Virus record (IMG/VR): IMGVR_UViG_3300002026_002465
Location: 64,001 to 128,000 of that record
Reading direction: 5' to 3' (one strand)
Origin: a virus
Length of the DNA stretch: 64,000 bases
Part shown: one piece after another, positions 31,026 through 46,199 of the stretch
Layout: each line of letters opens with the position of its first letter
Position numbering within the stretch: the first letter of the stretch is position 1
Translations under genes and position numbers: made by a program
Notes under the pieces: model-generated
Databases searched by the model: none
Told to the model about the DNA's origin: nothing
The model's input: only the letters and a program-made list of their open reading frames with translations

Positions 31026-31059
31026 AAAAAGCGGCATCTTAAATGGTGCCGCTTTTTTT
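31026..31059. terminator. bidirectional rho-independent terminator
   Basis: AAAAAGCGGCATC-TTAAAT-GGTGCCGCTTTTTTT between the fibre operon (+) and the radical-SAM operon (-). Confidence 0.9.
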
Positions 31060-31085: not shown

Positions 31086-32186
31086 TTACGAATAGAATAT
31101 TTTTCTATCTCCTGATAAATACTTTAATTTATAGTTTTCTATCATTGAATCTTGAAGAAAATAAAATTGATTTAAATGATAATACTCGTTCAGTTCAATT
31201 TGTCTATAAAATGTTTTTAATCCTTGCCATGAATTAGAGTGTTTACCTAGACCTAAAACAGAATTTAAATATCCATTAATATTATTAGGCTTATCGAAAT
31301 AAATAAAGTTAAAATTAAAATCATAATTTTTTCTTAAAAAATTATAAAAATTTTCATTTGTTATATCTTTTTCATAATCATATTTATTGTTTTCTAATAT
31401 ATTTTTTAGTAATTTATCAATATAATTTATTTTTACATCTCTAAGTTTATTTTCAGCAAAATCATTATGAAATGTTGTTGTGAGTTTACTATATACAGTT
31501 ATTTTAGGAATATCAAGATTAGATAAGAAATTAAAATCATTTATCAATGTTTGATTGCTTTGATCTGAAAGCCCAGCCATTAAATCAACATTAATAATAT
31601 GCTTTTTATTTTTAAATTTATTAATAATATGTCTTAGTCTTTTTTCAATTATTTCTATTGACGGGTTAAATCTGTCTTCTGACGTTAAAGGTTGTGGACT
31701 TAATGATTGAATTCCTATACTTACTCTATTTATAAAATTAGAATCTGCTAAAAAATCTATTTTATCTTCAGTAAGAGTAGAGATACTTGTTTCAAAACTA
31801 TATATATTGTTGTTCATATCTAAATTAAAATTAGATTTTATCATATCAAACAATCTTTTCATTTGATATGGCTGGAGTAGTGATGCAGTCCCTCCACCTA
31901 TATAAAGAGACTTAAATACTTGATTCTTAAATAATGGTGAATACTCTTTCATTTGTAGTTCTAAATTATTTAAATAATCATTTATTTGTTCTTCATTTTT
32001 ATATAAATCTACAAAATAAATACAATATTTACATTGATGTAAACAAAATGGAATTTTTATAAATAATGATAAATAATCATATTCATTTTTTGTTTCAAAA
32101 TAATCATTCCATAATTCATATATTTGTTCTTTTGAAAGAGAATTTTCTTCTGAATCTTGTTGATAATCTGTTTTTAATTCTAACAC
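31086..32186 (-). CDS. HemN-like (class C) radical SAM enzyme
   Basis: FIKIPFCLHQCKYC (CxxxCxxC), YIGGGTAS, RVSIGIQS, INVDLMAGL. Confidence 0.85.
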   Translation of the reverse strand: MLELKTDYQQDSEENSLSKEQIYELWNDYFETKNEYDYLSLFIKIPFCLHQCKYCIYFVDLYKNEEQINDYLNNLELQMKEYSPLFKNQVFKSLYIGGGTASLLQPYQMKRLFDMIKSNFNLDMNNNIYSFETSISTLTEDKIDFLADSNFINRVSIGIQSLSPQPLTSEDRFNPSIEIIEKRLRHIINKFKNKKHIINVDLMAGLSDQSNQTLINDFNFLSNLDIPKITVYSKLTTTFHNDFAENKLRDVKINYIDKLLKNILENNKYDYEKDITNENFYNFLRKNYDFNFNFIYFDKPNNINGYLNSVLGLGKHSNSWQGLKTFYRQIELNEYYHLNQFYFLQDSMIENYKLKYLSGDRKIFYS

Positions 32187-33100
32187 TTAAATTCCTTGAG
32201 TGCATTATCTATATCATTTTCAATAAAAAAATTAGATTTATAATTTCTATATTTTTCTATTCCTGAATTACAATCCAATACTGAATAATTATATTTTTTA
32301 TCTAAAACTTCTTTCATTATTTCATATACTAATCCTTCATCATAAACATGATGAAGTGCATCTTTATATACCAAAGCATTTGGATATATTTTTTCTATAG
32401 AATCTTTATTATAATCAGTATATTGCACTTCTATTAAATTTAAATGGGATATACCTATTTTATCAAATATTTCAAGATGTGATAACAATAAATCCTTGTG
32501 CAAAGGCCATGATGGTTCTTCTATTGTTATAATAAATCCCATTTCTTTTGCATCATACAAATAGTCAAAAACTTTTTTAGAAAAACCACTTGCACTTATG
32601 TGCACTCTAAGTTCTTGAATATTCATATTCTTTAATATTAATAAATTTTCTTTATTTAATAACAATCCATTAGTATAAATATGTTTGTAAATATTGTAAT
32701 TATTATTTGATTCTATTTTTGAAAGTAATTTTGAAAATTCTTCATATTCATTTAAATATAATAATGACTCTCCCCATGTATTAAATGATACTGTTTTTGG
32801 TTTGAAATTTAAATCTAAACTCTTTTTATATAATTCTTTAATTTCAGTTTTTGGAATATCATTGAAATAATCAAGCATTTCATTGTCAATATTATTATAA
32901 TAACACATTGGACATTTTAATTGACATTTAGTTCCAACATGAATAGCAAATGATTGATTTGTTTTAAAACAAGATATACATCCTGGAGATATTTTTCCTA
33001 TGTGAATGCAATCACCATTTACATGCTTTTCAAGTTCTGGTATAGATTTTTGAGATTCTAATTTTTTCTGGAAAATATCACTATAAGATACTATTTTCAT
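32180..33100 (-). CDS. radical SAM enzyme (GKISPGCxxC subtype, COG2108-like)
   Basis: GKISPGCISCF plus CQLKCPMC; HIYTNG; start at ATG 33100 coupled ATGA to the upstream stop. Confidence 0.85.
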   Translation of the reverse strand: MKIVSYSDIFQKKLESQKSIPELEKHVNGDCIHIGKISPGCISCFKTNQSFAIHVGTKCQLKCPMCYYNNIDNEMLDYFNDIPKTEIKELYKKSLDLNFKPKTVSFNTWGESLLYLNEYEEFSKLLSKIESNNNYNIYKHIYTNGLLLNKENLLILKNMNIQELRVHISASGFSKKVFDYLYDAKEMGFIITIEEPSWPLHKDLLLSHLEIFDKIGISHLNLIEVQYTDYNKDSIEKIYPNALVYKDALHHVYDEGLVYEIMKEVLDKKYNYSVLDCNSGIEKYRNYKSNFFIENDIDNALKEFKC

Positions 33101-34629
33101 GTTTTTTCGCCACAAATAACTAAAGCACTAAACTCACCAACATTGAATATATTTTCTATATTATATTTTTCTTTCGTTTTGATTAATCTATCTTCTATAA
33201 AATTTTTGTCAAAAATAACACCATTGTTAAAAACATTATAAATTAATATTATTTTTCCAGAAAATTTATTTTGTTTATATAATTTATATCTAAAATCAAA
33301 TTCATCTAGTGTGTTGTCAATGCCTGCATTAAGAATATAATCAAATTTATGATGATCAATAATACAGTCTTCATCATTGATTGTAAAATTAATTTTCGAT
33401 CCATTAAAAGTTTTTAAAATATTTGCTATTTTAATAGAAGTTTCATCAATATCAAATCCATGTATTAATATATTTGGAAACACTTCTTCTAGAATAAATG
33501 AATTTGTGCCATTATTACAGCAAATATCTAGAATTTTACTTCCAGATTTAATATCTAATTGTTTAAGCAATAATTTTCTAGCACTGTAAGATTGAATATC
33601 ACAGTCAAATAATATTTCATTGTTTAAAATAATAGGTGAAACAAGTTTATTATTCTCTTTTGAATATTTTAATAAATCTAAAATATCTTTTTTATATTCT
33701 ATTGGATAAATATCTAATTCATTTTGATAAAGATCAACATATTCTTTCCAAACACCTAAACATTTATTGTTATATACACATCTTAAACATTCTTGAGGTT
33801 TTTTAAAGTCATATTTAACCATCTCTTTAAAGTCACCATCAGGTTCATAGCCTGGATTGTCATTTACAAGTTCTATACATCTATCATATGATGAATATGA
33901 TTGATATTCTTCTAATGATCCTTCAATTTGATGTTTAAAACCTTGTAAATAACATGGAGGGAAGGCACTTGTATATATTTTATAATAATATTTACTTAAA
34001 ATATTATGAACAATATCTTTTAAGTCTGAATATTTTGGAACAACATTGTAAAAATCAGCCAATGCATTTCCCATAGCATGAGGAAATGTTAAACTTGAAT
34101 TATCAACATTTAACATATGAAAGAAATCAAATGTTTTTTCAAGTGATAATAAATTATATTTTGATATAACCGTTTGTGTTTGTATTTTAAATTTATCAGA
34201 TTTTAAATTAATTAGATTTGATAGTCCATTCAATGTATCATCCCATGAACCTTCTTTTTGACAAATAAAATCGTGTTCTACTTTATCAAAAGAATGTATA
34301 GCTACAAGAAAAGAATCTACATATTTTACAAGTTCTTTTGTAAGATTTATATCTTTAAGTCCAGTGCCATTTGTTTGTAGATCTATAGTGCAACTTGGAT
34401 TTATCTTTTTTATATATTGAACCATATCAACTAAATCTGGCCTTATTGTTGGTTCACCCCCTGTGATAGTGAATTTATCACATGTAGAGTATTTGTCTAT
34501 TATATTTTTCAATTCATCAAGAGAAAAATCAGGTCTATGTGTATATTGTTTTTTATCTGAAACAACACAATGAACACAATTATGATTACAATTCCAGCCC
34601 ACTTTTAAATCAATATGACTTTCTAACAT
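33097..34629 (-). CDS. radical SAM enzyme with Cys-rich auxiliary motif fused to a class I methyltransferase-like domain
   Basis: CNHNCVHC, TGGEPT, LQTNGT, KPQECLRCVYNNKCLGVWKEY; C-terminal GSKILDICCNNGT...IHGFDIDE (SAM-binding motifs I/II-like). Confidence 0.85.
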   Translation of the reverse strand: MLESHIDLKVGWNCNHNCVHCVVSDKKQYTHRPDFSLDELKNIIDKYSTCDKFTITGGEPTIRPDLVDMVQYIKKINPSCTIDLQTNGTGLKDINLTKELVKYVDSFLVAIHSFDKVEHDFICQKEGSWDDTLNGLSNLINLKSDKFKIQTQTVISKYNLLSLEKTFDFFHMLNVDNSSLTFPHAMGNALADFYNVVPKYSDLKDIVHNILSKYYYKIYTSAFPPCYLQGFKHQIEGSLEEYQSYSSYDRCIELVNDNPGYEPDGDFKEMVKYDFKKPQECLRCVYNNKCLGVWKEYVDLYQNELDIYPIEYKKDILDLLKYSKENNKLVSPIILNNEILFDCDIQSYSARKLLLKQLDIKSGSKILDICCNNGTNSFILEEVFPNILIHGFDIDETSIKIANILKTFNGSKINFTINDEDCIIDHHKFDYILNAGIDNTLDEFDFRYKLYKQNKFSGKIILIYNVFNNGVIFDKNFIEDRLIKTKEKYNIENIFNVGEFSALVICGEKT

Positions 34630-34639
34630 TAATTAATCC

Positions 34640-35101
34640 TTATAATGACTTTACGTATTCTATTGCTTTTTCCATATTAAAAAACATTACATCTTTTTTT
34701 GTATATTCATACATGTTATCTTCAATATAATTAAATTCTGGTATTAATGCTTTTTCTTTTTTAATGTCGAAAGTATCATCCTGTTTAGGATTACTTTTAT
34801 CAAAATACTCTTTAAATTTATTAAAATTATTAACTTCAATTGTTTTTATTGAACTATCAAATATAAGTTTCCACCTTGTTTTTACCATTTCAAATTTATC
34901 ATCATCTTTCAGAAAGTTTTTTACTGTCATAATGTCATATACTGTTGGACAGTCTTGTTGTATTATTATTATTTTATTTAAAAGCTCTTTGTAATTATCG
35001 TTTATTACAATATCAATATGACTTTTTATAACTTCATCAATACCATAGCCTATATTATTAATTAAATAAGCGTTTTTTATTTCCTCTCCATTATAATTCA
35101 T
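34640..35101 (-). CDS. hypothetical accessory protein (paralog of 43251-43709)
   Basis: GGAGG SD; shares IDx(V/I)IxDN(Y/F)xE and FD....EVx..xKxK segments with 43251-43709. Confidence 0.75.
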   Translation of the reverse strand: MNYNGEEIKNAYLINNIGYGIDEVIKSHIDIVINDNYKELLNKIIIIQQDCPTVYDIMTVKNFLKDDDKFEMVKTRWKLIFDSSIKTIEVNNFNKFKEYFDKSNPKQDDTFDIKKEKALIPEFNYIEDNMYEYTKKDVMFFNMEKAIEYVKSL

Positions 35102-35999
35102 TGTTTACCTCCCAATTTAAAAATACATTTGTTACAGGTTTTAAAAATTTATCATCATAAATATAATAATAAGATTTATGAATTCCAAGACAATATTCAA
35201 AATGTGTGCATTTTTCACAATTAAAATGAAAAACATTTTCTTTAAATAAATCTCTTATTTGTTTTATTCCATTTTCTTTTTTCAAAGAAGCTAAAATCCA
35301 ATTATATTCTATAGAATATTTAACAAGATTTTTTAATTCACATATAGGAATATATGCTATTCTATATTTACTTTTATCTCTTGAATTACTAATTATAGTA
35401 TTTAATATATTATATACATCACCATATAAAGGTAAAAATTTTTGTATTTCACTTATATCAGCATTAAATGGATTATATACTTTAAAAAAAATATCAGCAT
35501 TTGGCCATTTTGAACTTACATAAGAATTCCATTCCTCCATAGAATCTAAATTTATTTTATTTACAACAACTCCAATTGTTATTTCTTTAAATTTATAATT
35601 ATAAATTTTATCTATTAATTGTATTTTTTCTTTATAAAATACTCTATTACAAAGTTTATCATGTATTTCTTCAATGTGACTATCTAAAGATGTAGATATT
35701 GATATCTTAGATATGTCTCTTTTAATAAACTCATCAAAAAAAGCATTATCATTAAATTTTAATAAATTACTTATCACAAGTATATTATCAAACTTATTTA
35801 GACAAATATCTAATATTTCAAAAAAATCTGGTCTTATAGTTGGTTCACCACCTGTAATAGTTATATTACTACTTTCACATTTAATAATATCTATTTGTTT
35901 TAAAATATCATTTGAAGATGGAATTGGAGAGTTTTTTTCTCCACAGAACTCACAATCTAAATTGCATATTCCACCCAAATTAATATCATTAACAATCAT
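35091..35999 (-). CDS. radical SAM enzyme with C-terminal CxxC-x4/5-C motif
   Basis: CNLDCEFC, TGGEPTIRPD, YIPIC, CEKCTHFEYCLGIHKSY; immediately downstream of the putative substrate gene. Confidence 0.85.
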   Translation of the reverse strand: MIVNDINLGGICNLDCEFCGEKNSPIPSSNDILKQIDIIKCESSNITITGGEPTIRPDFFEILDICLNKFDNILVISNLLKFNDNAFFDEFIKRDISKISISTSLDSHIEEIHDKLCNRVFYKEKIQLIDKIYNYKFKEITIGVVVNKINLDSMEEWNSYVSSKWPNADIFFKVYNPFNADISEIQKFLPLYGDVYNILNTIISNSRDKSKYRIAYIPICELKNLVKYSIEYNWILASLKKENGIKQIRDLFKENVFHFNCEKCTHFEYCLGIHKSYYYIYDDKFLKPVTNVFLNWEVNNEL

Positions 36000-36658
36000 A
36001 GATTATCTTGATATGTTGCTGGATTAGTGAATACATTTAAATATGTTAAATTAGCATATGCTGTTGCTGTGTTTAAATGACTACTTCCTGTATTAGAATG
36101 ATTTCCATGATTTCTATGGCATGTATAACTTCTAGTATTTGAACTATGTGAGTTGCTATGATTTTGATAACCATTAAGATATGATGGTGCAGGACTATCT
36201 GTATAGTTTGAATAATTAGCATAGGCAGCTACTTGTTTAAGTCTTGTAGCAATTTCATCTATTTTTGATTTTGTAATTACTTCTCCTTCTACAACAGGCC
36301 CAACTGATCCTAACATCCCCATTTCTGACATTTCATCTAATAACCCTGAATATGTTCCATTTATTACACCACTTTGTTCATTAAGATGTTCTTGTTCAAT
36401 TATTTCACTATCTGCAACTTCAGTATCTGAAACACGAGTATATGTTGGAGATCCTGCATACCCAAACTGTATTTTTACAGCTTTTGCATGTTGTCTAAGC
36501 TGTTTTAATGTTTCACCATCTAATTTTGTATCTGCTTTTACTGTTCCATCAGCATTAAAATATGTTGAGTTAAACGGTAAATCTAATGGCCATTTTTTAG
36601 CGGAGTCATCAATTTCAGTAGCTGCATTTGAATAATTTGCGTAATTTACATATCCCAT
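35996..36658 (-). CDS. putative radical-SAM substrate (RiPP-precursor-like), 220 aa, with (Y/H)-X-N repeat tail
   Basis: AAGGAG SD then ATG 36658 (MGYVNYANYSN...). C-terminal YANYSNYTD..YLNGYQNHSNSHSS..HRNHGNHSN..HLN..YAN..YLN.FTN..YQD. It is the only low-complexity peptide-like gene amid 11 radical SAM genes. Substrate role is inference. Confidence 0.75.
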   Translation of the reverse strand: MGYVNYANYSNAATEIDDSAKKWPLDLPFNSTYFNADGTVKADTKLDGETLKQLRQHAKAVKIQFGYAGSPTYTRVSDTEVADSEIIEQEHLNEQSGVINGTYSGLLDEMSEMGMLGSVGPVVEGEVITKSKIDEIATRLKQVAAYANYSNYTDSPAPSYLNGYQNHSNSHSSNTRSYTCHRNHGNHSNTGSSHLNTATAYANLTYLNVFTNPATYQDNL

Positions 36659-36660
36659 AA

Positions 36661-37605
36661 CTATATCTCCTTTTTTAAGAATCCTAGGCATGGACCTGGA
36701 CACTCTTTGAATAAGAAACAACATTTTTTACATTCTTCAGGTAAACCTTGTGTCGAATATGCTAACCTTTTTCTAAGAAAAAGTTCATTTTCAACTGTAT
36801 TCAATAAAGAATGTTTATCCATATCAACTCTTATGTTTTCTCCTGGATAACAATATTGAACTTCTGATGGATTCAAAATATCAACTGGAATTCCATTTTC
36901 ACAACCATATTTGAACCCTTCAAGCCATTCTAATAAAAATGTTTTTACAGTATTATCTTTGATCATACACGGATAAATTCCGCAATCTAGATTAAATTTT
37001 ACTTTATTTTTTATACCCCAATTAACAAAATCAATAATTCTATCAATATATTCATAATTATTAAAAAAATACATTTTACTATTAGTATCTTTTGGGTTTG
37101 GAAATGGTAAACTTATTCTTGCTCTACTAAACACATCACCTAATTTTTCCTTATACTTATTTAAATTATCTTCATAATATTTAAAATCATAATCAAGATT
37201 GATTGTATACCCTAATCTTATATTAGCATTAGTGTATTTAGATATTAATAGCATGTTTTCAGATGTTAAATCAAACTGTTGTTGAGATACTTCAGAAACA
37301 TTTATTAAAAATCCAAGATTTTTTTCACTTATAAAATCTATAATACTGTTTAAAATTTTTTCTCCAAAAATAAAATTGCTTATTAAAGTAATTTTATTTG
37401 GTAGTGTTTTCAAATAAGATAGTATTTCAACAAAATTTGAATTATTTGTTGGTTCACCACCTAAAAGAGATATGTTATTATTTACAGTCATTTTTTTTAC
37501 AATGTTTTTTACATCATCTAATGACATTTCACTTTTATCTAGAACATCTTTAGCAAAGCAAAAAGAGCATCCTTTATTACATGAAGTAGTTAAGATAAGA
37601 TTCAT
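36661..37605 (-). CDS. radical SAM enzyme with SPASM/twitch-like Cys motifs
   Basis: CNKGCSFC, LLGGEPT, LDCGIYPC, YCYP, CKKCCFLFKECPGPC. Confidence 0.85.
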   Translation of the reverse strand: MNLILTTSCNKGCSFCFAKDVLDKSEMSLDDVKNIVKKMTVNNNISLLGGEPTNNSNFVEILSYLKTLPNKITLISNFIFGEKILNSIIDFISEKNLGFLINVSEVSQQQFDLTSENMLLISKYTNANIRLGYTINLDYDFKYYEDNLNKYKEKLGDVFSRARISLPFPNPKDTNSKMYFFNNYEYIDRIIDFVNWGIKNKVKFNLDCGIYPCMIKDNTVKTFLLEWLEGFKYGCENGIPVDILNPSEVQYCYPGENIRVDMDKHSLLNTVENELFLRKRLAYSTQGLPEECKKCCFLFKECPGPCLGFLKKEI

Positions 37606-38800: not shown

Positions 38801-38801
38801 T

Positions 38802-39089
38802 TTATTCTCCTATTGTTTTATGCTCATTAAAACCAGATTCACCTATTGGATTTTCAGACTGAATTTTTTCAGATTCAGAAGTAAAATTTTCAATATGACC
38901 TATTAACCTATCAAAACAAACGTCACAATACAAAGATGTTGTTTTTCTACACATACTAGCATCCATTTCACTTTGATTTGTATTTGGGTCTTTAATCCAT
39001 GTTTTAAAATCTATAACTATTTCATGATAATATCTATTTTTATAGATGTTTTTACCACAACCGTCACATTCAACTACTGAGTATTTCAT
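38802..39089 (-). CDS. small CxxC...CxxC metal-binding protein (paralog of 45975-46199)
   Basis: VECDGCGKNI...IVIDFK...LYCDVCFDR; AGGAG SD. Confidence 0.75.
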   Translation of the reverse strand: MKYSVVECDGCGKNIYKNRYYHEIVIDFKTWIKDPNTNQSEMDASMCRKTTSLYCDVCFDRLIGHIENFTSESEKIQSENPIGESGFNEHKTIGE

Positions 39090-40123
39090 AATTTCTCCTT
39101 TGTGTATTCATTAAATTCATCTTCTAATATTTTAATTCCAACCATTATAGAGCAAAAAACATCTCTTGATTCTTTAAACGCTGCATAACATCCTGTTCTA
39201 CAAAAATCTTTTGCTTTACAATCTTCACATGTTTTATCATAAAAATCATTTGATTTAATTTTATCATAATTTGTAACATTAAATTTCATATTAGGAAAAT
39301 CATTAAGATTTAAATATATTTTTTTCTTATCATATTCTAGACCACAATGGGATATTTCACCAGATGGAAAAACTGAAAAAGATAGATGTTTATCAAGACA
39401 GTATTGCTTATTTTTAGTTATAAAATTTAAAAAATCTAAACTGCCAAACTCCAATGCTGTTTTAGCAAATTGTTTTAATAGTGTTTGAACAAAATTCTTT
39501 GCATCTTTTTTAGGTGAAAAGAAATCTATTGAAGTTGAGTGTTCTAATTTTAATGAGTCAAGAAACTTTTTATCTTCTAAAAAAGATCCAGCATTATTTT
39601 CTGATATTGTCCTATTAATAAAAACTTTATTTGGAAATATAGATGCAAACGTCATTAGATTGTTTATTGTTTTATTAAATGATCCTAATCCTCTAACCTT
39701 ATCATGAGTGATTTCACTACTATCTAATGATATGCTTATTTCACTATACATTGCTCCCATAAATTCAATTTGTTCTTTACTATAATCTAAAGTTAAATTT
39801 GTAACAAGAGATAATTCACAGTTTGGTATAGACTTTAATATTAATGTATAATTATAAAAATATTGCCAGTCTAATGTGGGCTCGCCACCATTTATTAAAA
39901 TATGTAATGTATTATCAGGGTGTCTATACATATTAATCATTTGTGTAAAATTATAAAAATTTTCTATTGAAAGCTTTTCTTTTGTATTTTTATGAAATTT
40001 ATTTTCATTATTTTTATGCACACAATAATTACAATTTAAATTACAATCAAAAGATGGAAATATAGTAACATCATCTATTCTTATTTCATTTTTTATAGGA
40101 TTATCAACCTCAAAATAGCTCAT
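39086..40123 (-). CDS. radical SAM/SPASM enzyme
   Basis: CNLNCNYC, INGGEPT, ISLDS...HDKVRG.GSF, CLDK...VFPSGEISHC, CEDCKAKDFCRTGCYA...C. Confidence 0.9.
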   Translation of the reverse strand: MSYFEVDNPIKNEIRIDDVTIFPSFDCNLNCNYCVHKNNENKFHKNTKEKLSIENFYNFTQMINMYRHPDNTLHILINGGEPTLDWQYFYNYTLILKSIPNCELSLVTNLTLDYSKEQIEFMGAMYSEISISLDSSEITHDKVRGLGSFNKTINNLMTFASIFPNKVFINRTISENNAGSFLEDKKFLDSLKLEHSTSIDFFSPKKDAKNFVQTLLKQFAKTALEFGSLDFLNFITKNKQYCLDKHLSFSVFPSGEISHCGLEYDKKKIYLNLNDFPNMKFNVTNYDKIKSNDFYDKTCEDCKAKDFCRTGCYAAFKESRDVFCSIMVGIKILEDEFNEYTKEKL

Positions 40124-41058
40124 TTTTTCTCCTTATCAACCATATTTTTAAAATCATTTTCATCATCAAGAACCTCATTTCTATTTACAATATATCTTGC
40201 TCTAACTGTATCGGAGTTACAATCAAGAACTGAAAATTTATAATTTTTATTTATTACCTCTTCCATTATATCATATACAAGACCTTCATCATATAGATGA
40301 TAGTTTAGATTTTTATACATTCTTCCTTCTGGATAAATAGAATTTACTTTTTGAATATTCATTGGAGTTATATCTATTTCATCTAAATTTAAATGTTTGA
40401 CCCCAATAGAATCAAAAAGTTTAATTGCTTCAAACAACTTATCTCTATTGAGCATCCATGATGGTTCTTCTACTGTTACTCTAAATCCATTTTTTGCTGC
40501 ATGTTCCATGTTATTATATACTTTAATTGAAAAATCACTTGCACTTATATGAAATCTTATTTCTTCAATATCTAAATCTTTTAATATTTGAGTGTTATTC
40601 ATATCATATAAAATACCTGTAGTGTATATTCTTTTATGAATATTAATATTTCTTTTTGTTTCAATCTGTTTGATAATTTTTGAGGTTGATAAATAATGTT
40701 CTAAATATAAAAAAGGCTCTCCAATTGAATTATAACATATATTTGATGGAGAGTAATTCTCATCAAAAAGTTTTGAATAATAAAATTCATTTGTATTTAT
40801 AATATCTTTCTCTATTGATTTACTTTCATCAGTATTATTGTGTAATGTTGTGTAATAACACATTGGACATTGAAATGGACATTTATTTCCAATAAAAATA
40901 CTTTTTCTACATGCCTTTTCAGTAAAACATCCTTCACATCCTGGAGATATTTTGCCTATATGAGAAGCAAAACCATTTGCATGAAGTATAAGATTTGGTA
41001 TGTTTTTTTGTCTTAAATATTTTTCATTTAATATAGTTCTGAAATCAACTAAAATCAT
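40120..41058 (-). CDS. radical SAM enzyme (GKISPGCxxC subtype; paralog of 32180-33100)
   Basis: GKISPGCEGCF, CPFQCPMCYY, EIRFHISASDFS, VEEPSW, LYDEGLVY all shared with 32180-33100. Confidence 0.85.
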   Translation of the reverse strand: MILVDFRTILNEKYLRQKNIPNLILHANGFASHIGKISPGCEGCFTEKACRKSIFIGNKCPFQCPMCYYTTLHNNTDESKSIEKDIINTNEFYYSKLFDENYSPSNICYNSIGEPFLYLEHYLSTSKIIKQIETKRNINIHKRIYTTGILYDMNNTQILKDLDIEEIRFHISASDFSIKVYNNMEHAAKNGFRVTVEEPSWMLNRDKLFEAIKLFDSIGVKHLNLDEIDITPMNIQKVNSIYPEGRMYKNLNYHLYDEGLVYDIMEEVINKNYKFSVLDCNSDTVRARYIVNRNEVLDDENDFKNMVDKEKK

Positions 41059-41849
41059 GGTATCCTTTTAAAAACACTTGTATTCATTTCAAGAAAATTA
41101 AATTGTGTGCTTCCTTCATAAGAAGGATTTAACAATCTATCAACATCACTGCTCCAATAAAATATTGAATTTGTTCTATTTTTTGAAAAATAGAGATTGC
41201 TCATTATATCTAAAGTTTCATAGCTGGATATATACCAGTTTATATTTTTATAAATCTTATTATCATAAAATTTATTTTGATTATTTACTTCAACATCTCT
41301 TAGGATGATATAATTAAATTTATCAATAATACTTTCTAATAATGTATAATCTTCTTGAGAATATTTAATAAGAGGAATTTCTAATACTGAATTAGATACA
41401 ATATATTTATAATTAAAATCACTCTGAAAAGTATATCTAGTTTCATTTAAGTTAGGATAAATACCATCACTATTAACATATCCAAATGTGTATGTAGATT
41501 CATTTAATAAATCATTATATTCATTTATATAATTAAATGTTTTTATATCAGCATAACCATTTACTGATACAATATGAGGAGATGATTTATTAATTCTAAC
41601 ATAATTAGAAAGATTTTCTAATCTCCACGTTATATGGTCTGATAATTTAGAATTATAATAATTTGCATAATATTGCACTTCTAATAAATATTGAATATAT
41701 TCAGACTTTGGTATAGAGAAAAAGTCTATAAAAGAATAAGGAATATTACCTTTATAAATACAATACCCTGAGTAGTCAGAAATATATGGATATTTTAATA
41801 TAGTCTTATATTTATTTATAAATTCATCTTGAAAATTAATTTTAATCAT
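41055..41849 (-). CDS. degenerate (cluster-less) paralog of the GKISPGC-type radical SAM enzymes
   Basis: N-terminus (YCIYKGNIP vs CIHIGKISP) and central segments (SDF..K, V.EIP, LRDVEV..N) align by eye with 40120/32180, but no CxxxCxxC. Confidence 0.5.
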   Translation of the reverse strand: MIKINFQDEFINKYKTILKYPYISDYSGYCIYKGNIPYSFIDFFSIPKSEYIQYLLEVQYYANYYNSKLSDHITWRLENLSNYVRINKSSPHIVSVNGYADIKTFNYINEYNDLLNESTYTFGYVNSDGIYPNLNETRYTFQSDFNYKYIVSNSVLEIPLIKYSQEDYTLLESIIDKFNYIILRDVEVNNQNKFYDNKIYKNINWYISSYETLDIMSNLYFSKNRTNSIFYWSSDVDRLLNPSYEGSTQFNFLEMNTSVFKRIP

Positions 41850-41868
41850 TGTTATATTAACTATGCTT

Positions 41869-43185
41869 TTATTTTGAATTAATTATATTCAAAAACTCAT
41901 TAGTTTTATCTAATAATTGCGTATTAAAGTATTCTCCTTTTGATTGAATATTAATATTCAAATTTTTTTTATATTCAAATGTACCCTCATATTCTTTTAA
42001 ATATAGAAATGATTCGAATATATATAAATACAAACCACTTATATTAGGAATATTAGAAATATATTTAAAAAACTCAGTAATTATTTCAGAATCTGATTTA
42101 TAATCATTTATATCAAATTGTTTAAAATATACAGGCTCTTTATTTTTATAAACTTCAATATATTGAAAATCTTGACCTATTTTAGAATAAATATCCACAA
42201 TGTTTTTCATTCTACCAGGTTTAATCTTATTTTCTATTTTAGAACCTATACCTAAAATAGAAAATGTTGGTTCAGATTTTAATATATCATCTTGACTTTT
42301 ATACTGTGGATATATCTTATTTATAAATAAATTTAAAGGTATTGTATTTTTTATTAAATTTACCTTATTAAACTCTCGTAAAATATTAAAAATTTTTTCA
42401 TAAGACAAAGTTTCATCTTTAAATTTAAAAAGTCCAGATGGATAATATCCAAATTTTTTACAAAATTCTAAAATAAATATACAATATGTTTTATATAAAT
42501 CTTCTGATGGATATAATTCCTTATTATTTTTATCTGAAAAACTATAATCAATTGCTAAATTAATTTCATCTACACCCATGGAAGCAACATTAAACATATC
42601 ATAAATCATTTTTTCTACATGATCTTTTTCTTTCCAAAAGATTATAAAGTCGGTTAAAACATATATATTTTGTTTTTTAAAATCTGAAATAATTTTAGGA
42701 ATATTCTCATAATTTTTATATATCCTATTTTGCTTTTTTAAATATTCTTTATCAAAAGTCTGTATACAAAGAATAATAGAGTTAAAGTTGTATTCGCCAA
42801 GAAGTAACGATTGTTCTTCTATATAAGCAGACGGATGAATTTCCATTAGTTTTGATTCTATTTGTTTAAAATTTGGAATTTTTTCAAAAACCATTCTCAT
42901 GTCATCTATAGACATAATATTAGCCGTTCCGCCACCAAAACAATATGTTTCAATTTCTGAATTCGCAATTATATTAGAATAAAAATCAATTTGAGATATT
43001 AAATATGTAATATAATCTTGATATTTAGTACTTTCTTCATAATTTTGAGATATTATTGAACCATGAAAAGGACAATATAAGCAATTAGTGAAGCAAAATG
43101 GATTATGCACATAAACTCTTACAGGAGTGTTATTAAACTCCCATAAATCTAAAATAGATTCTTTTAATATTTCTTGTAGTTTCAT
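41869..43185 (-). CDS. HemN-like (class C) radical SAM enzyme
   Basis: VYVHNPFCFTNCLYC, CFGGGTA, MEIHP, ILCIQTF, ILGIGS. Confidence 0.85.
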   Translation of the reverse strand: MKLQEILKESILDLWEFNNTPVRVYVHNPFCFTNCLYCPFHGSIISQNYEESTKYQDYITYLISQIDFYSNIIANSEIETYCFGGGTANIMSIDDMRMVFEKIPNFKQIESKLMEIHPSAYIEEQSLLLGEYNFNSIILCIQTFDKEYLKKQNRIYKNYENIPKIISDFKKQNIYVLTDFIIFWKEKDHVEKMIYDMFNVASMGVDEINLAIDYSFSDKNNKELYPSEDLYKTYCIFILEFCKKFGYYPSGLFKFKDETLSYEKIFNILREFNKVNLIKNTIPLNLFINKIYPQYKSQDDILKSEPTFSILGIGSKIENKIKPGRMKNIVDIYSKIGQDFQYIEVYKNKEPVYFKQFDINDYKSDSEIITEFFKYISNIPNISGLYLYIFESFLYLKEYEGTFEYKKNLNINIQSKGEYFNTQLLDKTNEFLNIINSK

Positions 43186-43194
43186 TATAAGAAA

Positions 43195-43220
43195 TATGCT
43201 TTTTCAAATGAAAAAGCATA
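43195..43220. promoter_or_regulatory. perfect 12-bp inverted repeat in the divergent promoter of the radical SAM island
   Basis: TATGCTTTTTCA-AA-TGAAAAAGCATA in the 65-bp gap between divergent starts 43185(-) and 43251(+). Confidence 0.6.
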
Positions 43221-43250
43221 AATTTATGTTTTTTTTCATAAGATAATAAT

Positions 43251-43709
43251 ATGATAAAAATAACAACTATTGATAATATATATGAAGTGCTGCAAGATAC
43301 TACAAGTGTTGAAGAAAGATGTGAAATTGCTATAAAATTAATTGATACTATTATTAAAGATAATTTCAATGAGTATTATATAATTTTTTTAGATAATTAT
43401 AACGTTCCAGTTCAGTGGAGTGATTTTGAGAATTTTTGTATAAAAGAAAATTTAGATTTTGATAAATATAAAAAGTTGACTAATCAATGTTTCGATAAAG
43501 CAACATTATATTTAGAAGTTGTTGATCTAGAAAAAATAAAAATCAACTACCCAAAGGATAAATTTCCAAAAGATGTAAATAACTACACTCCTTATGGATA
43601 TAGTAACTATCCAAATAGATTCAGAATTTATAATAGAGACATCGCCATGGATCTTATTAAAAACTACTCTCTACAAGAACTAGAAAAGTATAGTCATGAT
43701 TTATCATAA
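43251..43709 (+). CDS. hypothetical accessory protein (paralog of 34640-35101)
   Basis: 152 aa vs 153 aa; shared segments by eye; first gene of the rightward operon. Confidence 0.75.
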   Translation: MIKITTIDNIYEVLQDTTSVEERCEIAIKLIDTIIKDNFNEYYIIFLDNYNVPVQWSDFENFCIKENLDFDKYKKLTNQCFDKATLYLEVVDLEKIKINYPKDKFPKDVNNYTPYGYSNYPNRFRIYNRDIAMDLIKNYSLQELEKYSHDLS

Positions 43710-43746
43710 GTAAGGCATATTTTAGTAGTTAGTAATAGAGGTAAAA

Positions 43747-44718
43747 ATGCTTAAATGTTTAGATCTTGAAACGGAAAACACCAATGATTATTGGGGTTCA
43801 ATAATTATTTATGGGCACCAAAAATGTATGAATACTTGTTTGTTTTGTTCAGGTAAAAACGAATCAATTGATGATGATACTATAAAATATAAAAAAGCAA
43901 TTTATGATGCTGATTATTTAATAAGTAGTGGTGTAAATAAAATAGAAATATCTGGTGGAGATCCAGGTGAATTTAGTATGATTGTTGATGTTGTGTCTTA
44001 TTTAAAAACTAAAGGTATTAAAACAATTCAATTATCAACACACGGAAGAACTCTTATTAATGAAAATTTTGTAAAAAAATTAAAGGATGCAGGTGTTACT
44101 TTGTTTAAAATACCATTATATGGTAGCACACAAGAAATACATAATAAAAGTGTCCAGGTTGATAATTCAATAGATAATGCTTTTTCAGACACAATTACAG
44201 GTATTAAAAATTGTAATAAACATGGCATGAGTATAATAGGATATATTTTATTAAATCAATATAATAAAAATGATATTACAAATATAGTAAGATTATATTT
44301 AAGCATCTCAAATTATATTTATAAAATAATAATAGGAATAACATTTATTTCAACTGTTGAATATAGTTATACAAGAGATTGGTTTTTACCAATAAAAGAT
44401 ATGAAACCATATCTTGAAGATATATTGATTGAATTTTCTAAAAATAATATAAATTTTGAGATGATTGATATTCCTTATTGTGCTATTGGTAAGTATTCTG
44501 AAAATATAGATAATAGACTTATTTTTCCAAATCTTGGAAATCATAAAGTAGAAGAACAAAATAGATCAACAATTTCAGATTTTATTCCTCATTATAGAAT
44601 TAAATCATATTTTAATGAATGTAATTCTTGTAACTTAAAAAATCTATGTAGTGGTATTCCAATCAATGAAATTAAAATGTTTGGAATATATGGACTTGAA
44701 GGAGTTGGAAGTGTTTAG
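43747..44718 (+). CDS. radical SAM enzyme with C-terminal CxxC-x5-C motif
   Basis: CMNTCLFC, ISGGDPG, LSTHGR, DIPYC, CNSCNLKNLCSGI; GAGG SD. Confidence 0.85.
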   Translation: MLKCLDLETENTNDYWGSIIIYGHQKCMNTCLFCSGKNESIDDDTIKYKKAIYDADYLISSGVNKIEISGGDPGEFSMIVDVVSYLKTKGIKTIQLSTHGRTLINENFVKKLKDAGVTLFKIPLYGSTQEIHNKSVQVDNSIDNAFSDTITGIKNCNKHGMSIIGYILLNQYNKNDITNIVRLYLSISNYIYKIIIGITFISTVEYSYTRDWFLPIKDMKPYLEDILIEFSKNNINFEMIDIPYCAIGKYSENIDNRLIFPNLGNHKVEEQNRSTISDFIPHYRIKSYFNECNSCNLKNLCSGIPINEIKMFGIYGLEGVGSV

Positions 44719-45973
44719 ATTTACAGATTTAATTATATTTAGATTAACAAGGGGGTGTAATCTAAATTGTAAATATTGTTTTATGCAAAATAAAGAAGAA
44801 TATAAAAATGAAAAAATAGATTTTGAACTTTTTAAAAAAATAATAGATAGAATTATAGAACAAAGACTAATAAATTCAAAACATACACAACTATCACTTG
44901 TTTTTCATGGTGGAGAATTTTTAACTATAGGGAAAAAAAGCCTGTATGAAATTTTAGAATATACAACTGCCCAAATGAATCTAAATAATATAGATTGTGA
45001 ATTAGGTTGTCAAACAAATGGGGTATTATTAGATGATGAAATTGCAAAAATATTAAGTAAATTTAGTGTAGGAATAGGACTTAGTTTTGATGGTGTAAAT
45101 GGTTCTAATGACTTGCGTGATATTAAACAGGAAATATTTGAAAGCAAGTTTGAAATATTAAAGAAAAATAAAAACAATTTTGGTTTTCTTATCATTGCAA
45201 ACAAATCTAATATTGATAAAATCCAAGATTCACAAGATTATATTAAAAAGTTAAATAGAACAAATGGATATAAAATAAATTATTCTGAAGATATGATAAA
45301 TCCTGGTGAAAACAGTGAAATAGAAGTCTCTGGTAAAGAAATGTTTGAGAAAGTTTTTAAGCCAGAATTATTACGTATTTTAAAAGGAGAACAACCTGAA
45401 GAACATAACACAAAAGAACTTTTAACAAAAGCAATAATAGATATTTTATCATATCATGAAAATGGCACAAAATCAGGTTGTGGCACTAAATGGTGTGGTG
45501 CTGGTATCTCAATGATAGCAATAGAGCCTGATGGTGAAATGGATTATTGTGATAGATATTCCAAAAAATTTTCTGAAACATATATTCAACATGCTTTAGA
45601 TTATGATTTTTTAGGTATATATCAATTAAATAAAATGATACAATACAATAAAATGAAAGCTAAATTATATAATAATTATGAGTGTGATACTTGTTATGCT
45701 GATTATATATGTAATCATGGTTGTGAATCATTTTATTATTCTAAATATGGTGAATATGGAATTGATACTAGACTAGTGTGTGATCAGTATAAAATGTTTT
45801 ATAGTTTTGTTCTAGAAAATATTGTTGAATTTGTTAAAAAACGTGAAATTGTTTCATATGCAAATGATACTATAATTAAGATTAGACCAAACATTAATTA
45901 CTTATTTTTTTCTTATGGAATTGACTTGATAATAACAGATGATAAAAAAAGCATAATTATTAAAAGGACATAA
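44711..45973 (+). CDS. radical SAM/SPASM enzyme (paralog of 37577-38800)
   Basis: GTG 44711 after GGAG gives MFRFTDLIIFRLTRGCNLNCKYC, matching the paralog's MFQNTRQVILKVTRGC; FHGGE, CGTKWCGAG, IEPDG..YC, CDTCYADYICNHGC. Confidence 0.9.
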   Translation: MFRFTDLIIFRLTRGCNLNCKYCFMQNKEEYKNEKIDFELFKKIIDRIIEQRLINSKHTQLSLVFHGGEFLTIGKKSLYEILEYTTAQMNLNNIDCELGCQTNGVLLDDEIAKILSKFSVGIGLSFDGVNGSNDLRDIKQEIFESKFEILKKNKNNFGFLIIANKSNIDKIQDSQDYIKKLNRTNGYKINYSEDMINPGENSEIEVSGKEMFEKVFKPELLRILKGEQPEEHNTKELLTKAIIDILSYHENGTKSGCGTKWCGAGISMIAIEPDGEMDYCDRYSKKFSETYIQHALDYDFLGIYQLNKMIQYNKMKAKLYNNYECDTCYADYICNHGCESFYYSKYGEYGIDTRLVCDQYKMFYSFVLENIVEFVKKREIVSYANDTIIKIRPNINYLFFSYGIDLIITDDKKSIIIKRT

Positions 45974-45974
45974 C

Positions 45975-46199
45975 ATGAATAAAAATTATTGTACTAGATG
46001 TAAAAATGAAATTATAGATATGGCAATTATAGTTGATTTTAAAATAAGTGTTGGAAGAGTAAAAAATAGTGGAATATTTGAAAACATTCCAAATCTTGAA
46101 AACAACTCAAGAGAAGTTTTATGTGATGATTGTTTTAACAAGTTTTCACTTTTAATGGAAGGCTTAAATATAAAATACAATAAAAAAGTGGAGAATTAA
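45975..46199 (+). CDS. small CxxC...CxxC metal-binding protein (paralog of 38802-39089)
   Basis: NYCTRCKNEI...IIVDFK...VLCDDCFNKF; AAGGA SD. Confidence 0.75.
   Translation: MNKNYCTRCKNEIIDMAIIVDFKISVGRVKNSGIFENIPNLENNSREVLCDDCFNKFSLLMEGLNIKYNKKVEN

Follow-up and report, generated by a model that had tools for sequence, protein, structure and literature searches.

A run of 11 radical-SAM genes within the tail gene region of a phage raises the question of which molecule so many enzymes act on. The window analyzed here comprises 64,000 nucleotides (positions 64,001 to 128,000 of the 177,948-bp IMG/VR record IMGVR_UViG_3300002026_002465) and originates from a large uncultured T4-like phage of a microbial mat. 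The preliminary description had counted 11 genes with an intact CxxxCxxC motif, and the motif was found in all 11 open reading frames. Ten of them score above the gathering cut-off of PF04055 (Radical_SAM, 29.5 bits) and one matches weakly. When the complete record was searched in all six frames, exactly these 11 radical-SAM genes were found and none beyond the cassette, which is composed as follows (scores refer to PF04055).

31028..31059, no strand: hairpin resembling a bidirectional terminator (GCGGCA...TGCCGC), preceded by an A-run and followed by a T-run
31086..32186, minus: HemN-like (class C type) radical-SAM enzyme, 366 aa, 45.7 bits, no auxiliary Cys
32180..33115, minus: radical-SAM enzyme, 311 aa, 37.8 bits, extra N-terminal Cys triad C36, C46, C49
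33097..34629, minus: HxsC4/HxsC-like radical-SAM enzyme fused to a class I SAM methyltransferase, 510 aa, 70.7 bits
34640..35101, minus: 153-aa protein, no Pfam, NCBIfam or PHROG match
35091..35999, minus: HxsC-like radical-SAM enzyme, 302 aa, 51.6 bits
35996..36658, minus: putative substrate, acidic, 220 aa, aromatic-x-Asn/Asp triplet tails and folded middle
36661..37605, minus: core radical-SAM enzyme, 314 aa, HxsC position, 42.5 bits
37577..38800, minus: core radical-SAM/SPASM enzyme, 407 aa, HxsB position, PF04055 and PF13186 (SPASM)
38802..39089, minus: 4-Cys zinc-ribbon-like protein, 95 aa, HxsD position, invariant CxxC...CxxC
39086..40123, minus: radical-SAM/SPASM enzyme, 345 aa, 40.9 bits, SPASM motif at residue 299
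40120..41058, minus: radical-SAM enzyme, 312 aa, CxxxCxxC at residue 60, 19.7 bits (below cut-off)
41055..41849, minus: 264-aa protein, no Pfam, NCBIfam or PHROG match
41869..43185, minus: second HemN-like radical-SAM enzyme, 438 aa, 32.9 bits, first gene of the minus-strand operon
43186..43250, no strand: divergent intergenic spacer, 65 bp, perfect palindrome with 11-bp arms at 43195-43220
43251..43709, plus: 152-aa protein, no Pfam, NCBIfam or PHROG match
43747..44718, plus: HxsC-like radical-SAM enzyme, 323 aa, 51.4 bits
44651..45973, plus: second radical-SAM/SPASM enzyme, 440 aa from GTG, 42.3 bits, start ambiguous
45975..46199, plus: second 4-Cys zinc-ribbon-like small protein, 74 aa, four invariant Cys (alignment A3)
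46199..48270, plus: KdsA (Kdo-8-P synthase), KdsB (CMP-Kdo synthetase) and FSA/transaldolase-like aldolase, contiguous with the cassette

The two divergent, coupled operons described earlier were confirmed. They are tightly packed and stops overlap starts; in the minus-strand operon, running from 43185 to 31086, genes overlap by 4-29 nt or are separated by gaps of 0-19 nt, and the plus-strand operon begins at 43251. The palindrome between them is a possible shared operator or bidirectional hairpin. The proposed terminator at the left edge corresponds to the GC hairpin at 31028-31059, which was read by eye directly from the sequence and is not listed by the automatic terminator scan. It separates the convergent tail-fibre gene and HemN-like gene. 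The location between tail-fibre genes (PHROGs match at 28340-31024) and baseplate wedge genes (gp25/gp6-like PHROGs matches at 48298-48660 and 48694-50967) also holds, but three Kdo genes intervene before the baseplate. These match DAHP_synth_1 (149 bits), CTP_transf_3 (140 bits) and TAL_FSA (53 bits) in Pfam, and KDO8P synthase (216 bits) and the KdsB subfamily (199 bits) in NCBIfam. The gene previously listed at 44711 contains the CxxxCxxC motif, and its start is ambiguous (GTG at 44651 or later).

The putative substrate is the 220-aa protein. Its 75 C-terminal residues contain 14 [YHFW]-x-[ND] triplets compared with 3.4 ± 1.5 in composition-preserving shuffles (n = 2000), none of which reached 14, so the array is not a composition effect. 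The same test gave 0 of 2000 in 11 of the 15 members of its family. The protein has the highest motif density among the 238 ORFs of at least 80 aa in the 178-kb genome, and no comparable triplet ORF was found elsewhere among them, in agreement with the earlier claim of a single (Tyr/His)-X-Asn repeat protein. The disordered N-terminus carries the triplets YVN-YAN-YSN, which are found again in most family members. In an AF2 model, the middle has a pLDDT of 70-87, whereas residues 1-16 and 149-209 stay under 50; the triplet arrays are predicted to occupy disordered tails around a folded domain (about residues 20-148), for which no fold match was obtained. The protein has a pI of 5.3, contains no hydrophobic segment and has no match in Pfam, NCBIfam or PHROG. 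Its family is small, with about 15 sequences (14 representatives). In the alignment of 15 sequences (A5), the tail residues Y146, Y149, N151, Y206 and Y216 are invariant and N148 nearly so, the middle "x" positions are variable, and conservation also extends to the folded middle domain and the extreme C-terminus (…NPxxYxNxL). A single tail Cys in the motif C-H-R-N-H is conserved among the closest relatives. The location of the triplets in predicted disordered tails and the conservation of Tyr and Asn support the view of the tail as a RiPP-like target.

The enzymes encoded next to this protein point to peptide chemistry. The 37577 enzyme carries the full CxxCx5CxxxC motif and has about 32 orthologue clusters with 39-70% identity. 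Its best NCBIfam matches are DynA (107.7 bits), PapB (93.7), anSME (88.5), YhhB (81.0) and XyeB (77.1), all below the cut-offs, and the best PDB matches of its family profile are anSME (4K36), CteB (5WGG) and ChlB (9GM3). It aligns from about position 4-9 of the best-matching SPASM profiles and therefore has no N-terminal RRE, as in 3-CyFEs. The 44651 enzyme is its paralogue (31% identical), contains the full SPASM motif at residue 345, is paired with the second 4-Cys protein and matches YhhB (98.7 bits), QhpD (98.6), PapB (88.4) and anSME (88.2). Taken together, the SPASM enzymes match DynA, PapB, anSME, YhhB, XyeB, QhpD and AmcB best; judged by sequence, their nearest characterized relatives and solved structures are all peptide or protein modifiers. 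The 36661 enzyme has nine conserved C-terminal Cys, its orthologues are 29-57% identical, and its family shows only generic N-terminal radical-SAM similarity in NCBIfam (HxsC 28 bits). Orthologues of the 38802 protein were aligned from L011, L013, L015, L017 and L019 together with the paralogue in the window (A3), and no match to PF27806 (HxsD) or another family was detected. Orthologues of the 39086 enzyme in L011, L013, L017, L020 and L026 have 268-288 aa and no CxxxCxxC, with the C-terminal Cys motif retained.

The remaining enzymes are more diverse. Three of them are HxsC-like (60-119 bits). The fusion enzyme at 33097 matches HxsC4 with 119.2 bits (cut-off 500) and HxsC with 93.9 bits (cut-off 268), has a C-terminal CxxCx5C and a Methyltransf_31 match (34.7 bits) at residues 360-445, and is 42% identical to a 310-aa enzyme adjoining the repeat protein in L016. 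The 35091 enzyme, immediately downstream of the repeat-protein gene, reaches 59.5 bits for HxsC (cut-off 268) and has CxxCx5C at residue 261; the 43747 enzyme aligns with positions 33-288 of the 292 in the HxsC profile and reaches 89.1 bits (cut-off 268). The HemN-like enzyme at 31086 matches the STM4012 family (129.6 bits), ChuW/HutW (119.2) and HemZ/HemW/HemN (93-99), far below the cut-offs, and is 36% identical to L015:6342-7373. HemN-family matches of the second one (41869) are 46-67 bits, also below the cut-offs. The 32180 and 40120 enzymes are paralogues (45% identical); the former has ESM Atlas neighbours in radical-SAM clusters without names and no PDB relative by sequence. For the 41055 protein, a sub-threshold ESM Atlas lead (0.84) to class I methyltransferases was obtained. 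The 152-aa protein at 43251 contains a short YSNYPN stretch. No cassette enzyme reached an NCBIfam equivalog cut-off (HxsB/C, XyeB, YhhB, GrrM, FxsB, HemN and triceptide maturases included).

Which of these genes belong together was seen in related contigs. A run of 4-Cys protein, SPASM enzyme of about 400 aa, radical-SAM enzyme of about 315 aa and repeat protein is common to at least eight other contigs, with protein identities down to 26-33% in linked loci. The gene of the repeat protein comes after that of the 36661-type enzyme in the window, an SRR30757702 contig, L010, L011, L013/L014, L015, L017/L018, L020 and L026, directly wherever the order is D-B-C-A, and the SPASM enzyme and the 4-Cys protein precede that enzyme wherever the contig extends far enough upstream. 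The distant L019 contains all four core genes in the order A-D-B-C. The expectation that homologous clusters retain an aromatic-x-Asn gene is thereby supported, since this gene is tied to a specific radical-SAM pair across divergent contigs; enzyme sets without a repeat protein were found in no locus long enough to judge. All linked loci but one appear to come from a single phage lineage with shared structural genes, so the synteny is partly inherited and not independent evidence.

Only the 4-Cys protein, the SPASM enzyme, the enzyme of about 315 aa and a 39086-like enzyme or pseudo-enzyme travel with the repeat protein. Seven of the 11 enzymes are not conserved with it across relatives; these may do something else, so that action of all 11 on it is a supposition. 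L011, L017, L020 and L026 contain the core and one B12-radical-SAM enzyme, and no HemN-like or 32180-type counterparts were found in the stretches read of these four loci. In relatives, the B12-radical-SAM gene directly follows the repeat-protein gene and replaces the HemN-like and methyltransferase genes. In the SRR30757702 relative, the repeat protein is surrounded by at least seven radical-SAM genes whose order is unchanged. The earlier idea of a dedicated system that hyper-modifies one protein therefore stands in part: a conserved family is tied to an enzyme pair, but only the core travels with it. In the window (25% GC) and in L026 (37.5% GC), tail-fibre genes flank the cassette on one side and gp25/gp6 baseplate genes on the other; in L015, L011 and L017 it is located beside tail-fibre/baseplate genes.

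The closest analogue, by gene layout, is the bacterial HxsDBCA antiphage system (HXS; Nat Commun 2026), in which a small protein is combined with two radical-SAM enzymes, the first of the SPASM type, and with a 214-aa repeat protein, ordered D-B-C-A in 99.6% of systems (PMC13128918). The effector is modified as a protein and, once matured, blocks phage DNA entry; HxsA acts in the periplasm through basic repeats (PMC13128918). The phage core (95, 407, 314 and 220 aa) resembles HxsD-B-C-A in order and sizes, although no HxsA, HxsD, HxsB or HxsC family membership was detected in it by profile searches. The phage protein differs from HxsA in being acidic, in carrying an uncharged tail and in lacking both a signal-like segment and a peptidoglycan-binding domain. 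Triceptide maturases form i/i+2 links from Trp/Phe to Asn C-beta, Tyr to Asp/Arg and His to Ala/Arg (PMC11002830); unlike classical triceptide precursors, the phage protein has 220 aa and motifs at both ends. Campylobacter phages CP220 and CPt10, reported in 2010, carry 11 and 12 radical-SAM genes, read as a metabolic, interchangeable module (PMC2853527). No similarity to the cassette was detectable, but the gene count alone is not new, and the suggestion of an unprecedented size has to be toned down.

Several other explanations have to be weighed. Modification of the repeat protein could be the work of the core alone (two or three enzymes and the 4-Cys protein). In this reading, the two HemN-like genes, the 32180/40120 pair and part of the HxsC-like set would be unrelated auxiliary metabolic genes (cofactor, haem, anaerobic metabolism) that accumulated in a plastic region. 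The variable shell, the four loci with core and one B12-radical-SAM gene, the best matches of the HemN-like genes to haem-related families and the CP220/CPt10 precedent (PMC2853527) speak for it. However, the 11 genes form two tightly coupled operons, at least seven are kept in order in the SRR30757702 relative, the B12-radical-SAM swap looks like one tailoring function replaced by another, and haem or cofactor pathway genes are absent alongside. We regard it as unlikely. A product which, rather than being a virion part, acts as an HXS-like effector to exclude superinfecting phages at DNA entry or to counter a host defence would fit the core order and component sizes (PMC13128918) and the three HxsC-like enzymes. 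The features that separate the protein from HxsA, the lack of Hxs family membership and the conserved position inside the tail/baseplate module argue against it, and it seems a rather unlikely outcome.

It is improbable that what the cassette makes or tailors is a small molecule or glycan (e.g., Kdo in modified form, a different sugar or a cofactor) and that the repeat protein beside it is an unrelated structural or scaffold protein. Some radical-SAM/SPASM or twitch enzymes, e.g., BtrN, act on sugars. The Kdo genes adjoin radical-SAM genes in the window and, as orthologues with 46-60% identity, in L015, which also has an aminotransferase and a methyltransferase; in two distant paralogous clusters, L019 and L021, genes for glycosyltransferases, PMT_2 and a polysaccharide flippase are found. 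Some of the enzymes may therefore have a sugar-related role. Yet L011, L013, L017, L020 and L026 all have the repeat protein but, as far as they are sequenced, no Kdo genes, and profile searches revealed no glycosyltransferase in the window cassette. The families and solved structures closest to the enzymes modify peptides or proteins, and in a chance neighbour a triplet array so extreme statistically would not stay conserved in the disordered tails. Cleavage of the repeat protein after modification into small cross-linked peptides or a PQQ/mycofactocin-like redox cofactor appears very improbable. The SPASM enzymes PqqE and MftC make cofactors from Tyr-containing peptides, weak mycofactocin and PQQ maturase matches were obtained, and the cassette of one relative includes a Lipase_3-type hydrolase; however, proteases, peptidases and exporters were found neither in the window cassette nor in the other loci examined, and the folded middle domain and C-terminus are conserved as in a functional protein.

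On balance, we find it fairly likely that the cassette matures a whole protein as an HXS-like, triceptide-like system. The gene content, motif enrichment, family conservation, synteny and peptide-modifying enzyme affinities were observed, whereas the repeat protein as substrate, the chemistry and the biological role are inferred. The core comprises, in order, the 39086-like SPASM enzyme, the 4-Cys protein, the 37577 SPASM enzyme, the 36661 enzyme of about 315 aa and the putative 220-aa target, whose folded acidic middle domain is probably a recognition handle and part of the final product. By analogy with triceptides, the SPASM enzymes would create a bond between the aromatic ring of residue i and the beta-carbon of i+2, and the tails would become a chain of small cyclophanes. 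The shell of three HxsC-like enzymes (one methyltransferase-fused), the HemN-like pair and the two enzymes that have an additional N-terminal cluster, which B12-radical-SAM enzymes replace in relatives, would most likely modify some of the motifs by C-methylation or additional cross-linking. The modified product would be made inside the infected cell. A virion component had been suggested before, and one line of evidence, the conserved position, speaks for it; a tail-/baseplate-associated or late-acting protein is weakly favoured, HXS-like action against competing phages being the main, rather unlikely, alternative.

The sister phages L017 and L026 encode a further protein of about 600 aa adjoined by genes for a TIGR04115-like radical-SAM enzyme (175 bits) and a TIGR04119-like maturase; in L017 it has 599 aa and a CxxxC-repeat tail. 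With this second RiPP-type system on a large protein, maturases of full-length proteins look like a theme of the lineage. As its core gene layout is the same as in HXS, the cassette probably represents a new phage-borne protein-modification system.

The CxxxCxxC motif of the proposed radical-SAM cluster is present in all eleven ORFs. Ten of them pass the Pfam Radical_SAM gathering score; the remaining one, 40120-41058, reaches 19.7 bits, yet it is 45% identical to 32180-33115. A six-frame search of the whole genome recovered exactly these 11 radical-SAM genes. Their arrangement in two divergent, tightly packed operons was confirmed: the minus-strand set runs from 43185 down to 31086 with overlapping or almost abutting genes, and the plus-strand set begins at 43251. 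They are separated by a 65-bp spacer with a perfect palindrome (TATGCTTTTTCA-AA-TGAAAAAGCATA) at 43195-43220, possibly serving as an operator or as a hairpin acting in both directions. The terminator described at the left edge corresponds to a GC hairpin (31028-31059) bordered by A and T runs. Neither a late promoter motif (TATAAATA; 32 found, 21±5 expected) nor an AAGATA-type motif noticed by eye ahead of several starts (20 found, 18±4 expected) was convincingly enriched, and a sigma-70 scan stayed at background level.

The record comprises 177,948 bp with a CheckV completeness of 74% and a 'provirus' flag, and the GC content across the cassette is 22-28%. Two sequencing runs, containing 99% and 94% of the sampled words of the stretch, belong to one microbial-mat study, and one of them is possibly the source of this DNA; no RNA runs are among the sequencing runs listed as containing the stretch. 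The phage is a distant T4-like myovirus, and the nearest GenBank relatives of its wedge protein are found in cyanophages at about 25% identity. PHROG matches define the surrounding tail module:

28340-31024: tail-fibre matches
48298-48660: gp25-type baseplate-wedge match
48694-50967: gp6-type baseplate-wedge match

The cassette is thus flanked by tail-fibre and baseplate genes as described before, with the correction that genes for KdsA, KdsB and an FSA/transaldolase-like aldolase (46199-48270, plus strand) directly follow the cassette and intervene on the baseplate side, ahead of gp25 and gp6. In the related locus L015 (1905-3965), orthologues of these Kds and aldolase genes (46-60% identity) adjoin radical-SAM genes, and an aminotransferase and a methyltransferase are encoded there as well. 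KdsC, KdsD and Kdo transferases were not recognised among the cassette genes. A possible product of the phage is CMP-Kdo or a modified form of Kdo. Downstream of the baseplate genes lies one ORF of 4,528 aa, which extends from window position 57571 past the window end (genome 121571-135157).

By similarity, the eleven enzymes fall into several types (window start coordinates).

Types of radical-SAM enzymes in the cassette
37577: full SPASM; best matches DynA, PapB, anSME, YhhB and XyeB
44651: full SPASM; best matches YhhB, QhpD, PapB and anSME
39086: full SPASM; weaker matches, with DynA and YhhB at about 50 bits
33097, 35091, 43747: HxsC-like with a C-terminal CxxCx5C motif; 33097 carries a fused class I methyltransferase
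36661: novel type of about 315 aa with nine conserved C-terminal Cys; generic N-terminal radical-SAM similarity only
32180, 40120: extra N-terminal Cys triad; mutual paralogues
31086, 41869: HemN-like

The three SPASM enzymes share CxxCx5CxxxC plus an upstream Cys, and 37577 also has a Pfam SPASM match. The PDB matches of the 37577-family profile (anSME, CteB and ChlB) are all peptide or protein modifiers; orthologues of 37577 form about 32 clusters. On the HemN/HemW/HemZ/ChuW/STM4012 models, 93-130 bits were obtained for 31086 and 46-67 bits for 41869, all below the cut-offs of 205-400, and Radical_SAM is the sole Pfam domain reported for both. The HMM comparison suggested in the preliminary description gave similarity to the HxsB, HxsC and HemN families below threshold; none of the 11 enzymes reached an NCBIfam equivalog cut-off. 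The gene at 41055-41849 gave only a sub-threshold methyltransferase lead in the ESM Atlas.

The putative substrate is the 220-aa product of 35996-36658 (minus strand), which has the highest motif density among the 238 ORFs of at least 80 aa in the genome, in agreement with its designation as the single repeat protein. Residues 146-220 contain 14 aromatic-x-Asn/Asp triplets, compared with 3.4±1.5 in shuffled sequences (0 of 2000 shuffles as high), and residues 1-11 read MGYVNYANYSN. An exhaustive HMMER search of 1.8 billion representatives returned a family of 14 proteins at E≤0.001, of which the two weakest are spurious. The spurious representatives, P0015 and P0016, are large PKD/low-complexity proteins that match the middle domain weakly and repeatedly. 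Members have 220-290 aa and share triplets at the N-terminus, a conserved central part (…LRQHAKA…GLLD…ITK…), a Y-x-N-Y-x-N block and, at the C-terminus, NPxxYxNxL. Their folded middle domain and the presence of motifs at either terminus set them apart from a short leader-core precursor. In the alignment of 15 family sequences, Y146, Y149, N151, Y206 and Y216 of the tail are invariant and N148 is nearly so. In an AlphaFold2 model, the middle domain is predicted with moderate confidence (pLDDT 70-87) and the termini are unstructured. The fold of the protein had no match at E≤0.001 in Foldseek searches of PDB and BFVD, and the best VIA-align Z of 5.5 lies inside the stated noise range of the tool; the sequence has no NCBIfam or Pfam match at E≤0.01. 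The protein has a pI of 5.3, a tail charge of about 0 and a maximum 15-aa hydropathy of 1.07, with no hydrophobic segment.

The second-highest density of aromatic-x-Asp/Asn triplets in the genome (9 in 62 residues) was found in a 176-aa ORF at genome position 59137-59667 (plus strand), about 4.3-4.9 kb ahead of the window start. Its product, strongly acidic and with a high content of Tyr, Trp and Asp, may therefore be a DNA mimic or another modified protein.

Comparison with related contigs (L010 to L026) defines a conserved core. Wherever enough DNA is available, the gene order is a 39086-like gene, a gene for a small protein with four Cys (38802 in the window), the 37577 orthologue, the 36661 orthologue and the repeat-protein gene. 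This order was seen in the window and in at least eight other contigs (a relative from run SRR30757702, L010, L011, L013/L014, L015, L017/L018, L020 and L026). The expectation that relatives keep an aromatic-x-N/D repeat gene was borne out, as this gene follows the 36661 orthologue in each locus with enough DNA. Several orthologues of 39086 lack CxxxCxxC and keep the C-terminal Cys motif CxxCx5C...C (L011:351-1166, L013:2839-3660, L017:4739-5545 and L020:8851-9672), and the 288-aa counterpart in L026 likewise lacks CxxxCxxC. In these relatives, the 39086-like protein may therefore be a scaffold, possibly a pseudo-enzyme. In the distant locus L019, the four components occur in the order repeat protein, small protein, SPASM enzyme and ~315-aa-type enzyme.

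The remaining enzymes vary. Immediately behind the repeat-protein gene, relatives encode a B12-radical-SAM enzyme in place of the HxsC-like, methyltransferase-fused and HemN-like enzymes of the window; the SRR30757702 relative retains at least seven of the radical-SAM enzymes in order. Since this shell differs among relatives, co-conservation supports the core only. Of the proposed dedicated system in which all 11 enzymes act on one protein, the core is thus the supported part; that all eleven act on the repeat protein is something we infer, aided by the operon packing and the gene order in the SRR30757702 relative.

Some relatives show further features. In L019, an 80-kb contig, positions 7618-12203 encode a 250-aa Tyr-x-Asn protein, a small Cys protein, a 443-aa radical-SAM enzyme (judged by position, the core enzyme of the SPASM type) and an enzyme of 331 aa. 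Next comes a secreted ankyrin-repeat protein, and the neighbourhood contains six additional radical-SAM genes and the gene for an 894-aa double-GT2 protein. L026 (CAZLSE010000028.1, 20.7 kb), the closest relative of the cassette in the genome collections, was binned into a MAG of an uncultured gammaproteobacterium. The gp6/gp25 and tail-fibre homologues on it mark it as a phage contig, and its binning is at most a weak pointer to the host. The 36661 orthologue of L026 is apparently split (81 + 269 aa). In the JGI contigs L021/L022, a SPASM paralogue with 33% identity, which is also present on a 1.29-Mb contig, lies in another mega-cluster with at least eight radical-SAM genes, an HxsD-domain protein (PF27806), a NifH-like ATPase, two nitrogenase-component-like proteins, PMT_2, a GT2, Peptidase_U32 and a polysaccharide flippase. 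IMG/VR scans with the repeat protein (single sequence and alignment) or with the SPASM enzyme alone returned no relatives, nor did a JGI metagenome scan with alignment A1; the SPASM orthologue profile found relatives in IMG/VR at 22-26% only. In GenBank phages, the cassette has no nucleotide match, and the repeat protein and 43747 have no protein match.

[quoted passage not shown] Its effector is a 214-aa protein with five His-x-Ser repeats, and maturation is radical-SAM-dependent, with +8 Da on one repeat plus N-terminal processing (PMC13128918). HxsC and HxsD form a complex in the HXS system. The phage core follows the same order of a small protein, a radical-SAM/SPASM enzyme of about 400-470 aa, a radical-SAM enzyme of about 300 aa and a repeat protein of about 215 aa; the products of 38802, 37577, 36661 and 35996 have 95, 407, 314 and 220 aa. 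In both systems, three-residue, His-containing repeats are located on a whole protein and not on a short peptide, the phage protein being the putative substrate, and the phage cassette has three further HxsC-like enzymes. However, the phage system is encoded within a tail/baseplate module and has Tyr/His-x-Asn repeats, with about 17 triplets at both termini, instead of five basic His-x-Ser repeats. The repeat protein is acidic, and it lacks the His-x-Ser repeats, peptidoglycan-binding domain, signal/processing region and basic repeats of HxsA. The phage small protein is of a 4-Cys zinc-ribbon type, and there are up to seven extra radical-SAM enzymes. Profile scores place the enzymes outside the HXS families: 37577 reaches 35.0 bits on HxsB (TIGR03978; residues 8-50 only, cut-off 370) and 36661 reaches 28.3 bits on HxsC (TIGR03977; cut-off 267.9), with all 14 members of the 36661 family weak on HxsC (best E 4e-9). 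Neither 38802-39089 nor 45975-46199 matches HxsD (PF27806); both belong to a separate 4-Cys family.

A second relationship exists to triceptide maturases (XncB/XyeB, OscB/GrrM, MscB/FxsB, YxdB, HaaB and YhhB), which link an aromatic residue (i) to C-beta (i+2), with pairs including Trp/Phe-Asn, Tyr-Asp/Arg and His-Ala/Arg (PMC11002830). As in these systems, the SPASM enzymes have no N-terminal RRE, with alignments beginning at positions 4-9 of the YhhB, XyeB and DynA profiles, and the presumed target shows repeated aromatic-x-X triplets, with conserved Tyr and Asn columns. Acceptors already known include Asn at position 3 (Trp/Phe-x-Asn), and the known donors include Tyr and His. Tyr-x-Asn and His-x-Asn are outside the described pairs, though they fit the same logic; a Tyr/His-to-Asn linkage, as predicted here, would be chemistry not yet described. 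Further differences are the putative substrate, which has 220 aa and a folded domain between motif-bearing ends, the eleven enzymes instead of one or two, and the viral context. The best scores on the respective equivalogs remained below the cut-offs, with 98.7 for YhhB (445), 77.1 for XyeB (450), 61.5 for GrrM/OscB (310), 66.9 for FxsB (370) and 73.7 for AmcB (425); over the cassette, YhhB gave 81-99, XyeB 50-77 and GrrM 52-62 bits. We conclude that the core probably works like the HXS and triceptide systems and belongs to neither. The cassette is probably a phage-borne radical-SAM system, similar to both, that matures a whole protein with Tyr/His-x-Asn arrays.

The size of the cluster is not unprecedented as had been supposed, since the Campylobacter phages CP220 and CPt10 were already described with 11-12 radical-SAM genes (Timms et al., 2010, PMC2853527). 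In the excerpts of that report, these include a five-gene module, are of unknown function and are interpreted as host-metabolism boosters. Both phages are T4-like with about 178 kb, low GC and a similar radical-SAM count, whereas a repeat-protein substrate is not mentioned for them in the same excerpts. A tblastn search of 50,697 phage records with four cassette proteins matched no Campylobacter phage.

For the role of the repeat protein, the genomic position has to be weighed against the likeness to HXS. The cassette lies between the tail-fibre gene and gp25/gp6 in the window and in L026 (37.5% GC), and beside such genes in L015, L011 and L017. A virion-associated or tail-acting role can be put forward tentatively. 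An HXS-like exclusion or counter-defence role, which would parallel the block of phage DNA entry by HXS (PMC13128918), appears improbable. A role in DNA hypermodification, considered on the basis of PMC5889632 and PMC8989533, was set aside because genes for nucleotide metabolism are absent from the cassette and because of its location in the tail module.

Beside the Tyr/His-x-Asn core, L017 and L026 encode a CXXX-repeat maturation system (TIGR04115 + TIGR04119), whose target repeat in L017 is the tail of a large protein. It is absent from the window and the genome; its repeats are Cys-based, in contrast to the core, and it is relevant only as a parallel within the same phage lineage. The locus (L017:29-4598 and L026:4011-8291, both minus strand) encodes a protein of about 600 aa, the 599-aa L017 copy ending in about 200 residues of dense CxxxC repeat, next to a TIGR04115-like radical-SAM enzyme (175 bits) and a TIGR04119-like CXXX maturase (62 bits). 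From its sequence, it looks like a second RiPP-type system for a large protein. Together with the conserved tail-module position, this locus suggests a lineage habit of RiPP-type chemistry on large proteins encoded among tail genes, judged by position within one lineage. A more speculative and rather doubtful extension is that this T4-like lineage uses RiPP-type radical-SAM maturases on full-length proteins of the tail/baseplate module, that the Tyr/His-x-Asn tails are stapled into chains of cyclophanes, and that the product acts in or at the tail.

If the repeat protein is the substrate, the system would be compact and clonable and would combine about 17 candidate sites of a new motif, Tyr/His-x-Asn, with as many as eleven radical-SAM enzymes. 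Much new chemistry, both cross-linking and C-methylation, could then be expected from it, on a whole protein and not on a peptide. The four-gene signature of 4-Cys protein, SPASM enzyme, ~315-aa enzyme and aromatic-x-Asn protein provides a search handle for genome mining. Phages would then have HXS-like protein maturation of their own, coming to light only months after HXS became known as a defence of bacteria. If the product indeed belongs to the tail, it would represent the first virion component cross-linked by radical-SAM enzymes and a viral equivalent of the HXS effector. This raises the question whether these phages use radical chemistry to harden or functionalise parts of their tails, or whether the matured proteins are used against rival phages.
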